A stretch of DNA of 13,447 bases, taken from the UHGV virus genome UHGV-0125438; one strand, 5' to 3'. This document shows, one piece after another, positions 4,921-11,934 of this stretch (position 1 is its first letter; every line of letters starts with the position of its first letter). The notes beneath the pieces are model-generated. The model was not told the DNA's origin. It saw only the letters and a list, made by a program, of their open reading frames with translations, and ran no database searches. A program made the position numbers and the translations under genes. This DNA comes from a virus.

Positions 4921-7395
4921 ATGAGACAGGAATGTATACAAGCGGTCCAGCAGGCGGCGCAGCGCACGTTAACGGCGCGAGAAATACAGAACATTGAAGA
5001 CCGCATTTATCGAAATATGCGCTCCATTGCTCGTGATGATCCGATGTCGTGGCGACAACTTTCCGAATCAGAACGGTTGTATCGTGCAGCACAATTGGCA
5101 TCTGAAGAATTACAGCGAGAAGCGGCATTAAAGAAACGTCGTGTGGCTCTCACTATAGCCGCACGTCAGAGATTGGATAAATTTATCAATAGCTATCAAG
5201 GGGCTGATGGGAAACTTGGCGCTCTTAACCGTACTATTGCTTTTAATGCAGACGGTAAATCGAATTTCCTCTCTGTTGAATCCAGAACAAAAGCCACTCG
5301 TGATTATGCATTGAGTCAATTGCAGGAGGCATTTGAAGCAGTTGATCCTCGCTTTTTTGGCCTGTTTGAAGATGAAGCTGGCGTGCGTGACCTGGTATAT
5401 GAAATGCGAGGGCAAAATACTGGCAATGCTAAAGCAAGAAAAGGTGCTAAGGCGTGGAGAGAAGTGACAGAGCTACTGCGCCGCCGGTTTAATGATGCTG
5501 GTGGGGACATTGGCTATCTCGAAAACTGGGGGATCCCTCAACATCATTCTATGGAAAAGGTTGGGGCGGTATCAAAGGATAAGTGGGTTAGCGATGTTAT
5601 AGGTAAGCTGGATCGCAAATATTATACCCGAGTCGATGGACAACTGATGAACGATGCCGAGTTGTCTGCATTTCTTGGAGAGGCTTATAACACGATCGCT
5701 ACTGGTGGGCTGAATAAGCTTACTGATACCGGAATGCGAATTTCCGGCGCACGTGCTAACCGTGGTAATGCATCACGACAGATACATTTCAAAGATGCAG
5801 ATTCCTATCTGCAATATCAGCAACTTTATGGCGATCGCTCTCTATGGGAAATCATGGTCGGTCACCTGGAAGGTATCAGTAAAGATATTGCACTGGTGGA
5901 AACATATGGCCCAAACCCCGATCATGTTTTCCGCTCTCTTCTTGATCAGGTGAAGGCAGAAACTGCAACAGCTAACCCGAGTAAAATCGGTAAAGTCGAG
6001 CGGCTGGCGAACAACACAGAGAATCTGTACAACTTTATTTCCGGAAAGACACAGCCTGTAGCGAATCCGCACATCGCGCGATGGTCTGACAATATCCGCA
6101 ACTGGCTGGTTGCCAGCAGACTCGGATCCGCGTTGCTGTCATCGTTCTCTGATCTTGGAACCATGTATCTGTCTGCGAAGGTTACCAACCTTCCAATGAA
6201 CCAGTTATTCCGCAACCAGCTTGAAGCTATGGACCCAACGAACCGTACAGAACTTGCGCGGGCGCGCCGCGCTGGTCTGGCGATGGAATCTTTACTTGGC
6301 AGCGTTAACCGCTGGGCGATGGATAATATGGGGCCGTCAGTGTCTCGTTGGGCGGCAACGGCGGTAATGCGTGCCAGTGGGCTTACAGCATGGTCAGATG
6401 CGCACAAGCGCGCCTATGGCGTAACCATGATGGGAAGCCTGGGAGAAGTAGTGTCACGGACAGCAGACCTTCGTAGCCTCGATGACTCTGATTTTCGTAT
6501 CCTGAAAAGCAAAGGGATTACTGACACAGACTGGAGAGTATGGAAGCTGGCGCAACAGGAGGACTGGGGGAACGGTAATAATACGATGCTGACACCGGAA
6601 AGCATTATGCGTATCCCTGATTCAGCAGTTAAACATCTTGGTGATCCTGAACGTGTGAAATTTGAGGCAATGCGTAAACTGCTCGGTGCCGTAACTGAAG
6701 AAGTTGATATGGCTGTTATTACACCGGGAGCACGTGAGCAACTGATAACCGGTTCTGGTATTCAGCGTGGAACATGGAAAGGTGAATTAACGAGAAGTGT
6801 TTTCCTGTTTAAATCGTTCCCTATCTCGGTGGTTATGCGTCACTGGTCACGCGCTATGGGTATGCCGTCTGCTGGTGGGCGTGCGGCATATATTGCGACG
6901 TTTATTGCCAGTACGACCATTCTTGGAGCTTTGTCGCAGCAACTTAACGACCTTGCGTCTGGTCGTAATCCTCGCGAGATGACAGGAGAAGATGCCGCAA
7001 AATTCTGGCTTGGTGCTCTATTGAAAGGTGGTGGTCTTGGCCTTTACGGTGACTTTTTATTGTCAGATCACACTAGGTACGGAAGCGGCGCGCTGGCGTC
7101 GATGCTTGGCCCGGTGGCTGGTCTGGTTGATGACGTAGTGAAGATTGCTCAGGGCATACCGTTAAATGCTGTGGAAGGGAAGAGTGAGCAGACTGGTGGT
7201 GATCTGGTGAAGCTGGGGAAAGGTTTGATGCCAGGTGCGAATCTCTGGTACTTGAAGGCGGCTCTCGATCACATGATCTTTAACCAGATGCAGGAGTATT
7301 TTTCACCAGGCTATTTGCGTAAAATGGAGCAACGTTCGAAGAAAGAGTTTAACCAGACATACTGGTGGCGACCTCAGGATGTCACTCCGCAATAA
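4921..7395 (+). CDS. large internal virion / ejection protein, 824 aa
   Basis: ATG at 4921, 5 nt after the previous stop; 824-codon ORF ending TAA at 7393-7395. Third large protein of the block; the only antisense ORFs across it are low-complexity shadow ORFs. Confidence 0.8.
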   Translation: MRQECIQAVQQAAQRTLTAREIQNIEDRIYRNMRSIARDDPMSWRQLSESERLYRAAQLASEELQREAALKKRRVALTIAARQRLDKFINSYQGADGKLGALNRTIAFNADGKSNFLSVESRTKATRDYALSQLQEAFEAVDPRFFGLFEDEAGVRDLVYEMRGQNTGNAKARKGAKAWREVTELLRRRFNDAGGDIGYLENWGIPQHHSMEKVGAVSKDKWVSDVIGKLDRKYYTRVDGQLMNDAELSAFLGEAYNTIATGGLNKLTDTGMRISGARANRGNASRQIHFKDADSYLQYQQLYGDRSLWEIMVGHLEGISKDIALVETYGPNPDHVFRSLLDQVKAETATANPSKIGKVERLANNTENLYNFISGKTQPVANPHIARWSDNIRNWLVASRLGSALLSSFSDLGTMYLSAKVTNLPMNQLFRNQLEAMDPTNRTELARARRAGLAMESLLGSVNRWAMDNMGPSVSRWAATAVMRASGLTAWSDAHKRAYGVTMMGSLGEVVSRTADLRSLDDSDFRILKSKGITDTDWRVWKLAQQEDWGNGNNTMLTPESIMRIPDSAVKHLGDPERVKFEAMRKLLGAVTEEVDMAVITPGAREQLITGSGIQRGTWKGELTRSVFLFKSFPISVVMRHWSRAMGMPSAGGRAAYIATFIASTTILGALSQQLNDLASGRNPREMTGEDAAKFWLGALLKGGGLGLYGDFLLSDHTRYGSGALASMLGPVAGLVDDVVKIAQGIPLNAVEGKSEQTGGDLVKLGKGLMPGANLWYLKAALDHMIFNQMQEYFSPGYLRKMEQRSKKEFNQTYWWRPQDVTPQ

Positions 7396-7404
7396 GGATG
7401 AGAA

Positions 7405-7545
7405 ATGATTGCTTTTATTCTTGTTGTATTTGTGCTTGTTGCCCTTGGCGTTATGAATCGTAAATGTATCATTGAAGACGGTGAATTTGCTGTAGCAGTT
7501 GTTTTGATATTATCTGGTGTAGCAGGGCACATAGGTTTGTCATAG
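7405..7545 (+). CDS. small hydrophobic protein (46 aa), hypothetical
   Basis: Absent from the supplied ORF track (below its length cutoff). ATG at 7405 lies 7 nt after AAGGA (7393-7397) and 9 nt after the upstream stop. My translation is MIAFILVVFVLVALGVMNRKCIIEDGEFAVAVVLILSGVAGHIGLS, two hydrophobic stretches around a charged loop; stop TAG at 7543-7545. Confidence 0.4.
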   Translation: MIAFILVVFVLVALGVMNRKCIIEDGEFAVAVVLILSGVAGHIGLS

Positions 7546-7565
7546 CTTGAGTGTGACATGTCACA

Positions 7566-7581
7566 GGCCGCTTTCGCGGCC
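7566..7581. terminator. GC-rich hairpin (GGCCGC-TTTC-GCGGCC) between convergent genes; possible bidirectional terminator or RNA-stabilising stem
   Basis: Perfect 6-bp GC stem with a 4-nt loop, sitting between the end of the + strand small ORF (7545) and the stop of the - strand gene (7589-7591). No clean poly-U tract on either strand, so terminator function is uncertain. Confidence 0.3.
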
Positions 7582-7588
7582 CTTAAAT

Positions 7589-7846
7589 TTACCGGATTTG
7601 TTTTCGTAATTGTTCGGCACAATAGTCGAGATGTGTTTGCAGATCCTGCATAGACATCTGTGAGCTGGTGACGTAGTTAATCAGTGCAGTCAGTTCGGCA
7701 AGTGGGCCATCGACATTAAATCCATCCTTATCGAGATCCCGGAGTAATTTCATCAAGTGCGATCCCTCCACCAGTGACCTGACGCCTCCCGGCGTGTGAA
7801 TCCTTTCGGTAAATCCGTCTTCCAGTGGATAGTGATACTGCTGCAT
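7589..7846 (-). CDS. small antisense protein (85 aa), unknown function, apparently LexA/SOS-regulated; candidate antirepressor or SOS-induced moron
   Basis: Only convincing - strand gene in the window. I place the start at the internal ATG (7846-7844) because GGAGAAGATAAG sits just upstream on the - strand; the track's longer 126-aa form would run through the LexA box and an AT-rich low-complexity stretch. Product begins MQQYHYPLEDGFTERIHTPGG. A LexA box lies about 20 bp upstream. Confidence 0.55.
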   Translation of the reverse strand: MQQYHYPLEDGFTERIHTPGGVRSLVEGSHLMKLLRDLDKDGFNVDGPLAELTALINYVTSSQMSMQDLQTHLDYCAEQLRKQIR

Positions 7847-7865
7847 CTTATCTTCTCCATGCAAT

Positions 7866-7885
7866 AACTGTATGTTTATACAGTA
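7866..7885 (-). promoter_or_regulatory. LexA binding site (SOS box): AACTGTATGTTTATACAGTA
   Basis: CTGT-N8-ACAG with flanks matching 17 of 20 positions of the E. coli LexA consensus TACTGTATATATATACAGTA, both CTGT/ACAG half-sites intact. It sits in the AT-rich intergenic region just upstream of the - strand gene starting at 7846. Confidence 0.6.
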
Positions 7886-8041
7886 ACAAATAATTTGTTT
7901 GCTATCCAGCACGTTTTGCAAATTACCCGAAAGGTAATATCTATTGGTATTTATAGTCTTTTTATCCATATATGGTTTTTCAGGTAATAGAATAACCAGA
8001 TATGCGGCGCAACGGGTGCTGCGACTATCTGGAGATTTAAC

Positions 8042-10393
8042 ATGACGGTCTCAACCGAAGTTGACCACAACGAATACACCGGTAACGGCGTTACGACATC
8101 ATTCCCTTATACCTTTAGGGTTTTCAATAAATCTGATCTAGTAGTGCAGGTGATTGACCCTGAAGAGAATATCACTGTGCTGGCTCTTGATACTGATTAC
8201 ACAGTCACTGGTGCGGGAGGGTATAACGGCGGCAATGTAATTCTGTCGAAGGCACTGGCTAATGGTTATCAGATTTCCATATCGCGAGAACTGCCGGTTA
8301 CTCAGGAAACAGATCTTAGAAACCAGGGTAAGTTTTTTGCTGAGGTGCACGAGGATGCGTTTGATAAGCTGACTATGCTCATACAGCAGGTAAGTAGTTT
8401 ATTCGGGCTGGCGCTACGTAAGCCATCGAGTATCGCAAACTGGTATGACGCGCTGAACAACTACATCCGTAATCTGTGCGACCCACGAGACCCACAGGAC
8501 GCGGCTACCAAGAACTATGTCGATACGCTGGCAAGTGGCAACTTGAGCCGTACTCTGCGCGTTCCTGAGCCCATTAATCAGCTACCATCAGCAGTTGACA
8601 GGGCAAACAAAATGCCCGCGTTTGATAGCATGGGTAATGCAATTGTCGTTCTCCCGCCATCAGGTTCCGCATCTGAAGTTCTGATAGAGCTGGCAAAAAG
8701 TGACGGCTTCAAATTGATAGGGCAATTCCCTAACGTCACAGTTCTCCGTGCAACGGAGCCAGCTTCCGATGGTCAGCGGGTGCTCCTGAAAGAATATACC
8801 TCTGGTACAGGTTACGGTGGTGGTCAGCTTCGCGCAGTGCTTGATGGAAGTGCATATACAGACAACGGCGTTACCGTATTCAAGACTCCTGGTGGAGCGG
8901 CATGGATTCGTGTTAATGCTGATATCATTAACCCATTAATGGCTGGCGCAGTGCCTGATGGAGTTACCCCGTGCTCAGCAGCAATTAACGCCATGTTTGC
9001 TGTTGGCAAGAGAATGCAGTTTACAGGTGGTGATTATCTTCTTGATGCCACTATAACATTGCAAGCAGGTAGGTCTGTAGATTTTGGATCATCAAGGTTA
9101 ATCCAGGGTACTTCGCTGGCAAATTATATATTGGCGATAAGGGGGGATAATACACATACCTCAGGTGGTTTTATAGTTGGCACAGGTGTCAGGGCTGGGG
9201 CAAACAGTGTGGTGTCTGCGGTATTAGTTGCTGATACCTCTTATAGTTATGTTAAAGGAATGACAGTAAGAAGGGTCCCTGGCTCTGGTATTCAGATGAT
9301 CAATTGCACACGTTGTAAAATTCAGGATTGCATTTCTGAAAATAACTGGGGTATGGGTATTGAAGACCGTTACGGGACATTCAATGAAATTATCAATTCT
9401 GTCGGTAACTATAATGGTTATCTGAGTGATACAGAAATATCTGATGGCGGCAGAGGATGTATTGTCTGGAAGAGCACTGGTACAACCTTTAAAGGAAATC
9501 AAACATTCGGAAATAGCGAGTACGGCATTCGTGTGTATTCACAATCTGGAGATGATGCCACTACACGTTACATCCACATTTTCGACCATCTGGCTGGCGA
9601 TAACAAAAAAATAGACATCTACATTTACAATGATGCAGGAACACTACTTAACGTTGAGTTGAGTAATTGCCATATCCATAGATGGAGCCAGTCATTTAGC
9701 GGAAGCTATATGATTTCTTTGCAAGGAACTCGCTGCCATTTCAATGGAGGAAGTATAACAAAATATGGTGACATTTACGATTCAACGGCAATCCATTGTA
9801 GCAATGGCGACAATATCACAGTTGAAAACGTCAGCATTTCTAACGTATCTGCTGCTTTCGGTAACACTGCCAATAATACTACCGTAAGAAATTGCTCTGC
9901 TTCTTGTGGCGTTGTTATGACAGGTACAGGTGGAACCACCGGATATCTGACATTTGAAAATTGTAACTTTAGCCACACTGGCGCAGGTACATCTGATATA
10001 GCTTTCACAGTAACCTCTGCTACAAAACTTGAAGGGGTCAGGTTCAACGGATTCTTTAGGAATGTTTCATGGAACAATGAACCTCTAATCCTTATAGATT
10101 GTCACAGCACAAATACAACTGGAGACGCAATCAGAATGTACGGAGATGGTGTTGGAGCGTTCTTCCACTCTGGCTGTCGTTGGGATGTCCCAACAGTTCC
10201 TGCCTGGCTTGGAAGCTTAGTGAAGCAAGGATCATCTCTCCCTGTGCTTTACGATACCGCCGCTCCAACCACTTTGACCTGGCCAAGGGGATCGCGATGC
10301 ATAAATTCCTCTCCTGCTGTCGGGAGCCCTAAGGAGTGGGTATGTGTTACCGCCGGCACTCCTGGCACTTGGCAGTCAACAGGAAATCTCTAA
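8042..10393 (+). CDS. tailspike protein (783 aa): conserved N-terminal particle-binding domain plus beta-helix receptor-binding / polysaccharide depolymerase domain
   Basis: ATG at 8042 after GGAG; 783-codon ORF. The N-terminus MTVSTEVDHNEYTGNGVTTSFPYTF matches, from memory, the conserved tailspike N-terminal module of epsilon15/phiV10-like phages. The C-terminal two-thirds is rich in short Asn/Gly/Ser/Thr-containing repeats (NVSISNVSAAFGNTANNTTVRNCSASCGVV, and similar), typical of right-handed parallel beta-helix depolymerases. Confidence 0.85.
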   Translation: MTVSTEVDHNEYTGNGVTTSFPYTFRVFNKSDLVVQVIDPEENITVLALDTDYTVTGAGGYNGGNVILSKALANGYQISISRELPVTQETDLRNQGKFFAEVHEDAFDKLTMLIQQVSSLFGLALRKPSSIANWYDALNNYIRNLCDPRDPQDAATKNYVDTLASGNLSRTLRVPEPINQLPSAVDRANKMPAFDSMGNAIVVLPPSGSASEVLIELAKSDGFKLIGQFPNVTVLRATEPASDGQRVLLKEYTSGTGYGGGQLRAVLDGSAYTDNGVTVFKTPGGAAWIRVNADIINPLMAGAVPDGVTPCSAAINAMFAVGKRMQFTGGDYLLDATITLQAGRSVDFGSSRLIQGTSLANYILAIRGDNTHTSGGFIVGTGVRAGANSVVSAVLVADTSYSYVKGMTVRRVPGSGIQMINCTRCKIQDCISENNWGMGIEDRYGTFNEIINSVGNYNGYLSDTEISDGGRGCIVWKSTGTTFKGNQTFGNSEYGIRVYSQSGDDATTRYIHIFDHLAGDNKKIDIYIYNDAGTLLNVELSNCHIHRWSQSFSGSYMISLQGTRCHFNGGSITKYGDIYDSTAIHCSNGDNITVENVSISNVSAAFGNTANNTTVRNCSASCGVVMTGTGGTTGYLTFENCNFSHTGAGTSDIAFTVTSATKLEGVRFNGFFRNVSWNNEPLILIDCHSTNTTGDAIRMYGDGVGAFFHSGCRWDVPTVPAWLGSLVKQGSSLPVLYDTAAPTTLTWPRGSRCINSSPAVGSPKEWVCVTAGTPGTWQSTGNL

Positions 10394-10432: not shown

Positions 10433-11809
10433 ATGTCAGTTTCCAGAAGAAATTTTATTAAATTAGCTGCGGCCATCGGCGCGCTGTCAGGATCTGGTCT
10501 TCTTTTTGCAGATTTTGTTGCTGGAAGGAAAAACCGCGTATTCATTATTTACGGACAATCCAACTCAACAGGAGCCGTTGATTATTCACAGACCTGGAGA
10601 ACACCAAGCCCATGGGATTCTTATCTTGAATCATATGAGGGTGAGAGAGACGGTAGTAAATTCATCACAACTGATTTGGCAAGTGCATTTACTTTGTCCT
10701 CAGGCGGCGCAAGCTTAACCAATTTAGACAGAATGGCATTTGGTATTGATGCAGGAGAAGGGCCTGTATACGGAATAATTTCACATATCTCAAAAGCGTT
10801 TCCAAATGACAATCTTATTATCTTCGGGCACGGAAGGGGATCCCAGTATATAGAGCAACTTATTAAGCCTAGCAAAGATTTAATTCTTAATGGTGACAAC
10901 TATAACAAACCTCTAACTAAAGAGTCTTCTGACTACAATGTAGTATCAGGAAATAAATCACTGCTTTATTATCGCGAGCCAAAATTCCGCTACCCTTATC
11001 TGAACGGTATGTGGATGCTCGAAAAAATAAAAGATATTATCAAAAGTGATATTCAAGTTGATGGCATCTTCTGGATTCAGGGGGAAAATGATGCCATCGC
11101 CCCTAAAGGATATTCTGAAAAACTTCTATCATTCAGAAATGATTACGTTAAAGATATTGTAAAAATCACAGGGCAGGGCAAAGAGCCAGAGTTTATTTTT
11201 GAGCAAAGCAATTACTGTTGGCATGGTTTTAAAACCGAAGGTAGAAGGATAAACTCACACTTTGGTCTTAACGTCGAGCAACGCATGGCCCATGATGAAG
11301 CAAAACATTCCGGCATTAAGATGTACATCTCTGGCCCAAGATATCACCTGACGAACGAAATTCATATGTACCCACATGCCCAGCGTGCACATGGCGAAAA
11401 AATGGCACAGGCGTATTTAACTAGTAAGTTGTCAGGTTCATCATGGTCACCTCTATGTTATAAATCACATTCTATCGATGGTAACAGCATTATTATAAAA
11501 TTTAATATTCCTGTGAAGCCATTGCAATTTAGAAAAACCCTCAACGGAATGTATTCATTTATAAAAGATGGTTGTCCTATGGGTTTTCATTTCACAGGAA
11601 AAAAACTATCTGCTAGCGACGTTAAGATCATTTCAGATGATACTGTGAGCATCAATACTTCCGGCCTTAAAGGTACGGTGAGTTATCTTAAAGAGTCACG
11701 GATAGGAGAGCTTTGCGATAGTGATGAATTCCCAAATCATTTTAAAGATCGCTATCATGCAGACAATTGCATGCTGAATTATTGCCTTCCGTTTGAGATA
11801 GAAATTTAG
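10433..11809 (+). CDS. Tat-exported SGNH/SASA-family carbohydrate esterase (sialate O-acetylesterase-like), about 458 aa; candidate O-acetyl esterase acting on surface polysaccharide
   Basis: N-terminus MSVSRRNFIKLAAAIGALSGSGLLFA has a twin-arginine motif (SRRNFIK) followed by a hydrophobic h-region. The mature part begins IIYGQSNSTG (SGNH block I as in the SASA family GQSNMxG) and later has WIQGENDA (block III, GxND). Start chosen at ATG 10433 (GAGG 5 nt upstream) rather than the track's GTG at 10427. The gene is visibly AT-rich and sits 39 bp after the tailspike stop. Confidence 0.75.
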   Translation: MSVSRRNFIKLAAAIGALSGSGLLFADFVAGRKNRVFIIYGQSNSTGAVDYSQTWRTPSPWDSYLESYEGERDGSKFITTDLASAFTLSSGGASLTNLDRMAFGIDAGEGPVYGIISHISKAFPNDNLIIFGHGRGSQYIEQLIKPSKDLILNGDNYNKPLTKESSDYNVVSGNKSLLYYREPKFRYPYLNGMWMLEKIKDIIKSDIQVDGIFWIQGENDAIAPKGYSEKLLSFRNDYVKDIVKITGQGKEPEFIFEQSNYCWHGFKTEGRRINSHFGLNVEQRMAHDEAKHSGIKMYISGPRYHLTNEIHMYPHAQRAHGEKMAQAYLTSKLSGSSWSPLCYKSHSIDGNSIIIKFNIPVKPLQFRKTLNGMYSFIKDGCPMGFHFTGKKLSASDVKIISDDTVSINTSGLKGTVSYLKESRIGELCDSDEFPNHFKDRYHADNCMLNYCLPFEIEI

Positions 11810-11934
11810 GCAAATCACCTCTAGGGTAATTTCGTTAAGAGTTATCCGATCAAATTTAATCCACATATGGTTTATTGTGTATGATGAACTCACCAACTAA
11901 GGGGGTTCTTTATGCACATTAAACGGTGGTCACT

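Follow-up and report, generated by a model that had tools for sequence, protein, structure and literature searches.

The small minus-strand gene of the DNA analyzed here and the LexA box in front of it very probably represent ant and its LexA operator in an epsilon15/phiV10/SPC32H-type prophage, in which the antirepressor Ant would inactivate the phage repressor Rep and so act as the induction switch. The residual doubt concerns whether this prophage is intact and has a matching Rep. The initial annotation had proposed that the locus is the induction switch of a prophage, and this proposal is supported by the orthology of Ant, the synteny of the region, the box at the homologous position, and the location of the SPC32N difference inside the box. 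The Ant/Rep/LexA switch of SPC32H was reportedly described by Kim & Ryu in 2013 (J Virol 87:11775) and by Kim et al. in 2016 (PNAS 113:E2480), with the structures PDB 5D50 and 5D4Z. The system is already known from SPC32H, and the window (i.e., the entire stretch of 13,447 nt) contains a widespread E. coli-lineage copy of it, with no new biology beyond the SPC32H work. The identical 85-aa protein is found in 332 blocks of a public assembly collection, and its PGAP/RefSeq name is "hypothetical protein." A search with positions 6800–8800 (part of the 824-aa gene, ant, and the N-terminus of the tailspike) matched 539 of the 5,426 complete E. coli genomes, including 23 at a coverage of at least 80%. 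For annotation, the value is that a very common "hypothetical protein" can be recognized as a LexA-controlled antirepressor, which would explain how common guaA-integrated, serotype-converting prophages respond to DNA-damaging antibiotics.

The window is identifiable as part of a Uetakevirus (epsilon15/phiV10/SPC32H-like) prophage, namely the module for the tail, ejection (internal proteins), and lysis. The named members of this group are epsilon15, phiV10, SPN1S, SPC32H, and PAS61. Nucleotide identity of the window is 93–96% to the E. coli phages phiV10 and PAS61 and 77–79% to the Salmonella phages SPC32H and SPN1S. SPC32H, PAS61, and six E. coli prophages match the window in gene order, which runs from the 824-aa gene through the 46-aa gene and ant, on the opposite strand, to the tailspike gene. 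Prophages that encode the identical 85-aa protein are located between guaA and yfgI in E. coli chromosomes and are collinear except for the tailspike gene and the gene that follows it. As first described, ant is the only minus-strand gene, and this also holds across the same span in the syntenic relatives, apart from oac, which is absent from the window. The flanking genes are likewise convergent and divergent as described: the 46-aa membrane-protein gene (7405–7545, plus strand) converges on ant, and the tailspike gene (8042–10393, plus strand) diverges from it.

A plus-strand terminator scan found a GC-rich hairpin, GGCCGCTTTCGCGGCC (7566–7581), between the converging 46-aa gene and ant. Its stem is kept in PAS61 and SPC32H, and there is no T-run on its ant strand. 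This hairpin probably ends the transcript of the 46-aa gene and, we infer, that of ant as well. Adjoining it, also between the two genes, is a 14-bp perfect palindrome, TGTGACATGTCACA (7546–7562), which may be the second hairpin of a bidirectional terminator. An Rfam scan of the whole window found no RNA family.

The ant gene occupies 7589–7846 on the minus strand, with its ATG at 7846–7844 and a TAA stop at 7591–7589. The 85-aa product is identified as the orthologue of SPC32H Ant, with 88% amino acid sequence identity (72 of 82 residues; BLASTP E=3e-56), and the syntenic SPC32H gene is named ant, anti-repressor, in GenBank. The only PDB match is chain E of 5D50, "Anti-repressor protein" (phmmer E=1.6e-46), a crystal in which the 86-aa SPC32H Ant is bound to its repressor. 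Over 81 codons, the two genes differ by 33 synonymous and nine amino-acid-changing differences, and ant therefore appears to be under purifying selection. Ant also matches PHROG 450 (function unknown; E=1e-47) and, weakly, the C-terminus of the "anti-repressor" PHROG 1760; remote similarity was detected only to antirepressor families. These matches bear out the antirepressor role that had been proposed for the gene.

A toxin or another moron had been offered as alternatives to an antirepressor. A small SOS-induced protein of this type, or a DinI-like SOS modulator, would serve host physiology. Scans of Ant against Pfam and NCBIfam gave no family match, which leaves room for such a function, as does the uninformative PGAP name, and small LexA-regulated prophage genes of other kinds exist. 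However, these alternatives are very improbable for a protein with 88% identity to one crystallized in complex with a phage repressor, whose only remote similarity is to antirepressor families (PHROG 1760 and ORF4 of ZX5) and which has no DinI or toxin domain according to Pfam, NCBIfam, and PHROG. In addition, a Pfam scan of the 85 residues found no Bro-N domain (PF02498).

The ATG of ant is preceded by a ribosome-binding site that can be read directly from the sequence, GGAGAAG (7852–7858, minus strand), at a distance of 5 nt. The corresponding block, TGCATGGAGAAG, is kept in most relatives and is weakened in Erwinia and Scandinavium. A longer, 126-aa version of the gene (7589–7969) is present in the list of open reading frames and in the PAS61 annotation (OQ921333), and this frame is open in the window. 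If it were the true product, the "LexA box" would be coding sequence, which is hardly credible. In-frame stops are present 6–13 codons from the ATG in 48 of 87 loci, the extension is likewise interrupted by stops in relatives from Citrobacter, Erwinia, and Pseudocitrobacter, and in 15 loci the gap from box to ATG contains a 1-nt indel. Moreover, the ribosome-binding site is placed directly before the ATG at 7846, and the crystallized SPC32H protein has 86 aa. On the basis of the stops, the indels, and the position of the ribosome-binding site, the extension was judged non-coding.

The LexA (SOS) box, AACTGTATGTTTATACAGTA, is located at 7866–7885, reads TACTGTATAAACATACAGTT on the ant strand, and is homologous to the SPC32H box. 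In the 13.4-kb window, it is the sole site with three or fewer mismatches from the E. coli LexA consensus TACTGTATATATATACAGTA, and 200 dinucleotide-preserving shuffles of the window gave no match at this threshold. The pattern CTGT-N8-ACAG also occurs only once in the window, as this box, against a chance expectation of 0.16. With a position weight matrix derived from 20 E. coli chromosomal SOS boxes, which gives indicative scores only, the box has 26.3 bits; the consensus has 30.0, recA has 23.4, and the second-best site in the window has 8.3. A Lewis-style heterology index calculated from the same 20 boxes is 1.9–3.1, within the range of sulA and recA. The box thus scores as strong as the top chromosomal SOS boxes in the reference set. 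The gap between the box and the ATG of ant is 19 nt. The initial annotation had described a near-consensus LexA box about 20 bp upstream of the small minus-strand gene and had suggested scoring it with a LexA matrix; the description is accurate on all of these points.

The putative promoter of ant (7880–7908, minus strand) overlaps this box. It consists of a −35 element TGGATA (7908–7903) and a −10 element TACTGT (7885–7880), separated by a 17-nt spacer that ends in an extended −10 TGn (7888–7886). On the ant strand, TGGATA, TG, and TACTGT are invariant across seven genus-level relatives (E. coli type, Salmonella, two Citrobacter, Erwinia dacicola, Pseudocitrobacter, and Scandinavium). Five loci that served as divergent relatives came from a scan of species-representative genomes, with one genome kept per species. 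Among 80 E. coli-group loci, nucleotide diversity is zero in the promoter elements except for the n of TGn, and all bases from the palindrome that ends at 7938 to the box are invariant except for this n and the loop of the palindrome. From these patterns, we infer that TGGATA-17-TACTGT is the ant promoter. The predicted −10 coincides with the promoter-proximal box arm, and transcription is predicted to start inside the box, at about 7873, such that LexA would occlude both the −10 and the start. Kim & Ryu (2013) reportedly describe the box as overlapping the ant promoter.

A generic sigma-70 promoter scan of 7350–8100 found no minus-strand promoter; the putative ant promoter was missed because it does not fulfill the 9-of-12 rule of the scan. 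Two other arrangements were considered and rejected, namely a −10 TATAAA inside the box combined with a −35 TAGCAA, and a −35 TTGCAA combined with various −10 elements. Their hexamers or spacings are not kept in SPC32H, Erwinia, or Scandinavium.

The conservation of the box was examined in 89 related loci, taken from phage records, IMG/VR, and species-representative genomes. With four exceptions, namely SPC32N (the sibling phage of SPC32H), two loci at contig ends, and one with an insertion (L017), the distance from the box start to the ATG is 39 or 40 nt. When aligned, the boxes of the window and SPC32H are at the same distance from the ATG. In the 80 E. coli-group loci, the twelve arm positions have a nucleotide diversity of 0.002, compared with 0.227 for the four positions in the center, and this combination of essentially invariant arms and a free center is the pattern expected of a LexA dimer site. 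Furthermore, in the segment of about 220 nt that was compared between ant and the tailspike gene, SPC32H and SPC32N have a single difference, which changes CAG to AAG in an arm of the homologous box. This change of C to A lowers the matrix score from 25.3 to 19.0 and leaves the putative −10 intact. The box mutation reportedly makes Ant constitutive and SPC32N lytic (Kim & Ryu 2013). Because the altered arm is the one away from the −10, the mutation would abolish LexA binding and spare the −10, which fits the constitutive phenotype. In three complete related genomes, the box of ant is the only strong SOS box (25–27 bits, versus 13.7 or less elsewhere), and the prophage of E. coli F138, which has the identical Ant, contains no second SOS box. 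Given that complete relatives lack a second strong SOS box, the SOS signal would be able to enter only at ant. Taken together, these patterns support the box as a functional LexA operator of ant.

Several minor observations concern the center and the integrity of the box. The 8-nt center (7872–7879) occurs in both orientations among the relatives, as ATAAACAT or ATGTTTAT and as ATAAATAT or ATATTTAT, sometimes between loci with identical flanks of about 90 nt. The flipped centers fit either of two explanations, namely that the segment between the palindromic arms was inverted or that positions not contacted by LexA drift freely. The idea that the center is a mutational hotspot was dropped, as the diversity profile shows a stretch of 85 nt that is invariant apart from a few unconstrained positions, among them the center. 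In L017 (IMGVR_UViG_2563366870_000004), the promoter-proximal half of the box and everything upstream are replaced by unrelated sequence, which would uncouple ant from LexA or silence ant. Separately from this locus, the E. coli genome H36 has an annotated ISL3-family element in this region. Finally, one contig in the public record, L060 (IMGVR_UViG_3300045988_013119), ends in a Nextera transposase adaptor, AGATGTGTATAAGAGACAG, that is joined to the SOS box at its middle; this is an assembly artifact.

The proposed switch would work as follows. In the lysogen, host LexA bound at 7866–7885 would cover the −10 and predicted start of ant and keep the gene silent. DNA damage leads to LexA cleavage; RecA would be activated, LexA would cleave itself, and the 85-aa Ant would be made. 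Ant would bind Rep, a repressor with a helix-turn-helix (HTH) and no autocleavage domain, and the DNA-bound Rep tetramer would be taken apart. With Rep gone, the lytic promoters would be derepressed and the prophage would be induced. [quoted passage not shown] The LexA control of ant, the binding of Ant to Rep, the disassembly of the tetramer, and its release from DNA are described for the same phage (PMC7380047, PMC9638917), and further literature has been cited in support of an SPC32H-type switch (bioRxiv 10.1101/2025.11.27.690993).

The rep gene is outside the 13.4-kb window, at a distance of about 24 kb in the prophage. In E. coli F138, a 194-aa protein is encoded at the position of SPC32H rep. 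This protein aligns over its full length with chain A of PDB 5D50, "Repressor" (E=4e-42), contains only HTH domains and no Peptidase_S24 domain according to Pfam, and is 100% identical to Rep of the viable phage PAS61. The E. coli-type Rep and SPC32H Rep share 42% amino acid sequence identity, with a conserved N-terminal NLVNRW. The E. coli-type Rep is the presumed target of the Ant studied here.

A rival reading is that the box and ant are intact and the switch is nevertheless dead here, either because the prophage is defective or because its repressor is not recognized by Ant. In that case, Ant would be idle or would act only in trans on other resident prophages, a mode of action that has been documented for antirepressors of Gifsy and Fels-2 (PMC7380047). 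Rep is beyond inspection in the window and diverges far more than Ant between the lineages (42% versus 88% identity), and the box is disrupted by an insertion in at least one relative (L017). However, a dead switch is unlikely. The structural and lysis genes of the window have their full length and follow the gene order of viable phages, and Ant, the promoter, and the box are strictly conserved across the 80 E. coli-group loci. Furthermore, prophages with the identical Ant have an intact Rep and a complete genome, and the Rep of the F138 prophage is the same as that of a viable phage, PAS61. A working switch remains the preferred reading.

Between the ant and tailspike promoters, a perfect palindrome, ATTACC-CGAAA-GGTAAT (7922–7938), is a candidate Rep operator. 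It is located 35 nt upstream of the SOS box and is kept in all seven divergent relatives. A second copy in the window, with one mismatch, is found before the holin genes (11814–11830). In the SPC32H genome (L004), the motif ATTACC-N5-GGTAAT occurs eight times perfectly and 12 times with at most one mismatch, compared with 0.00 and 0.07 in shuffles, with copies at 11, 3174, 20012, 24781, 33527, 33603, 33665, 34389, 34406, 35971, and 36033. With at most one mismatch, 9–10 copies are present in PAS61 and in an E. coli prophage, and those of L097 range from 7843 to 38367. The palindromes flank rep on both sides in clusters, and others precede a replication-region gene, the terminase gene, the head genes, the tailspike gene, the holin genes, and int.

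The tailspike gene has a putative promoter that diverges from ant, TCCATA-17-TAGAAT (7965–7993, plus strand), with TCCATA at 7965–7970 and TAGAAT at 7988–7993. A GGTAAT half-site (7983–7988) abuts its −10, and two blocks of this promoter, ATTCATATA and GGTAATAGAAT, vary little or not at all among the seven relatives. The same layout is also seen upstream of the head and holin genes. Several palindromes are followed 42–45 nt further on by CCAYATATGG or CATATGTGGTT and then by a −10, which is often abutted by a GGTAAT half-site. Sites with this layout are found in the window at 7965–7993 (tailspike) and 11859–11885 (holin genes) and in L097 at 17931–18040, 34542–34640, and 38367–38470. One layout for the tailspike, head, and lysis promoters suggests a single regulator. 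The palindrome may be the Rep operator, dispersed at the head of essentially every transcription unit, with one Rep holding both early and late promoters, although we regard this tentative reading as somewhat less probable than its opposite. Dispersed operators are known for C1 of P1, to which the proposed Rep sites can be likened. If the reading is correct, Ant released from LexA control would unlock the whole genome in one step, and ant could also come under positive feedback through a Rep site at about −57 of its promoter. The palindrome motif may already have been mapped in the SPC32H work.

Compared with SPC32H, the window has an Ant that is 88% identical, the same antisense slot, with the 46-aa membrane-protein gene on one side and the tailspike gene on the other, and a LexA box that is equally distant from the ATG, and the Rep of complete relatives is likewise an HTH protein without an S24 domain. 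In contrast, the window belongs to the E. coli-type lineage, in which Rep is only 42% identical, and the central 8 nt of the box are reverse-complemented (on the ant strand, ATAAACAT versus ATGTTTAT). Further differences are found in the tailspike and the seroconversion cassette, and the window copy is known from sequence alone.

A second type of antirepressor in related phages has an N-terminal Bro-N domain, as in ORF4 of ZX5 and gp23 of phiV10 ("anti-immunity protein"). These proteins share with the small Ant the antisense slot and a C-terminal module, and differ in the Bro-N domain and in having a second gene of their own, located downstream of the small ant. Over its whole length, the small Ant is homologous to the last 74 residues of ZX5 ORF4 (150–223; 42% identity, E=7e-16), and it thus appears to be a stand-alone form of that C-terminal module. 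In phiV10 (L099, 1596–2180) and ZX5 (L098, 1078–1773), the small ant is followed on its strand by the Bro-N gene, in tandem. In comparison, the window has the small Ant alone, without the Bro-N cassette and with the terminator directly after it. Overexpression of ZX5 ORF4 reduced lysogeny and favored the lytic cycle in an E. coli Uetakevirus (PMC9782041). This "anti-repressor" study was set aside as a source of data on the small ant, because the gene tested encodes the neighboring Bro-N protein.

The initial annotation had drawn an analogy with Tum of phage 186 and the Gifsy antirepressors, which holds for the logic of the switch and appears not to extend to the sequence family. Tum and the antirepressors of Gifsy-1, Gifsy-3, and Fels-2 were reportedly described in Shearwin 1998 and Lemire 2011. 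In these systems, a LexA-repressed small antirepressor inactivates a non-cleavable repressor by protein–protein contact (PMC7380047). The resemblance to the window is one of regulatory logic; in Pfam and NCBIfam, where Ant matches no family, no sequence relationship to these proteins was found. Their genes occupy other genome positions in myovirus and siphovirus prophages. In P22, the antirepressor gene (immI region) is placed within the late region, beside the tailspike gene. The position next to the tailspike is thus similar, whereas P22 Ant is much larger and is under the control of the phage repressors Mnt and Arc and the antisense sar RNA, not LexA. The c2 repressor of P22 is RecA-cleavable, and ant mutants of P22 stay SOS-inducible (PMC7380047).

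The genes beyond ant are variable. The collinear prophages with the identical Ant (L091–L096) have at least four different tailspikes (783, 790, 825, and 894 aa) and differing downstream conversion genes. Receptor-binding cassettes have evidently been swapped right beside the conserved ant control region. In the window, a gene at 10433–11809 (plus strand) fills the seroconversion slot, where relatives have the O-antigen acetyltransferase gene oac on the opposite strand. Its 458-aa product has a twin-arginine signal, MSVSRRNFIKLAAAIGALSG (TIGR01409; 19.4 bits, above the cut-off), and a SASA carbohydrate-esterase domain. This protein may be an exported de-O-acetylase or a NanS-like esterase, with its gene acting as a conversion gene.
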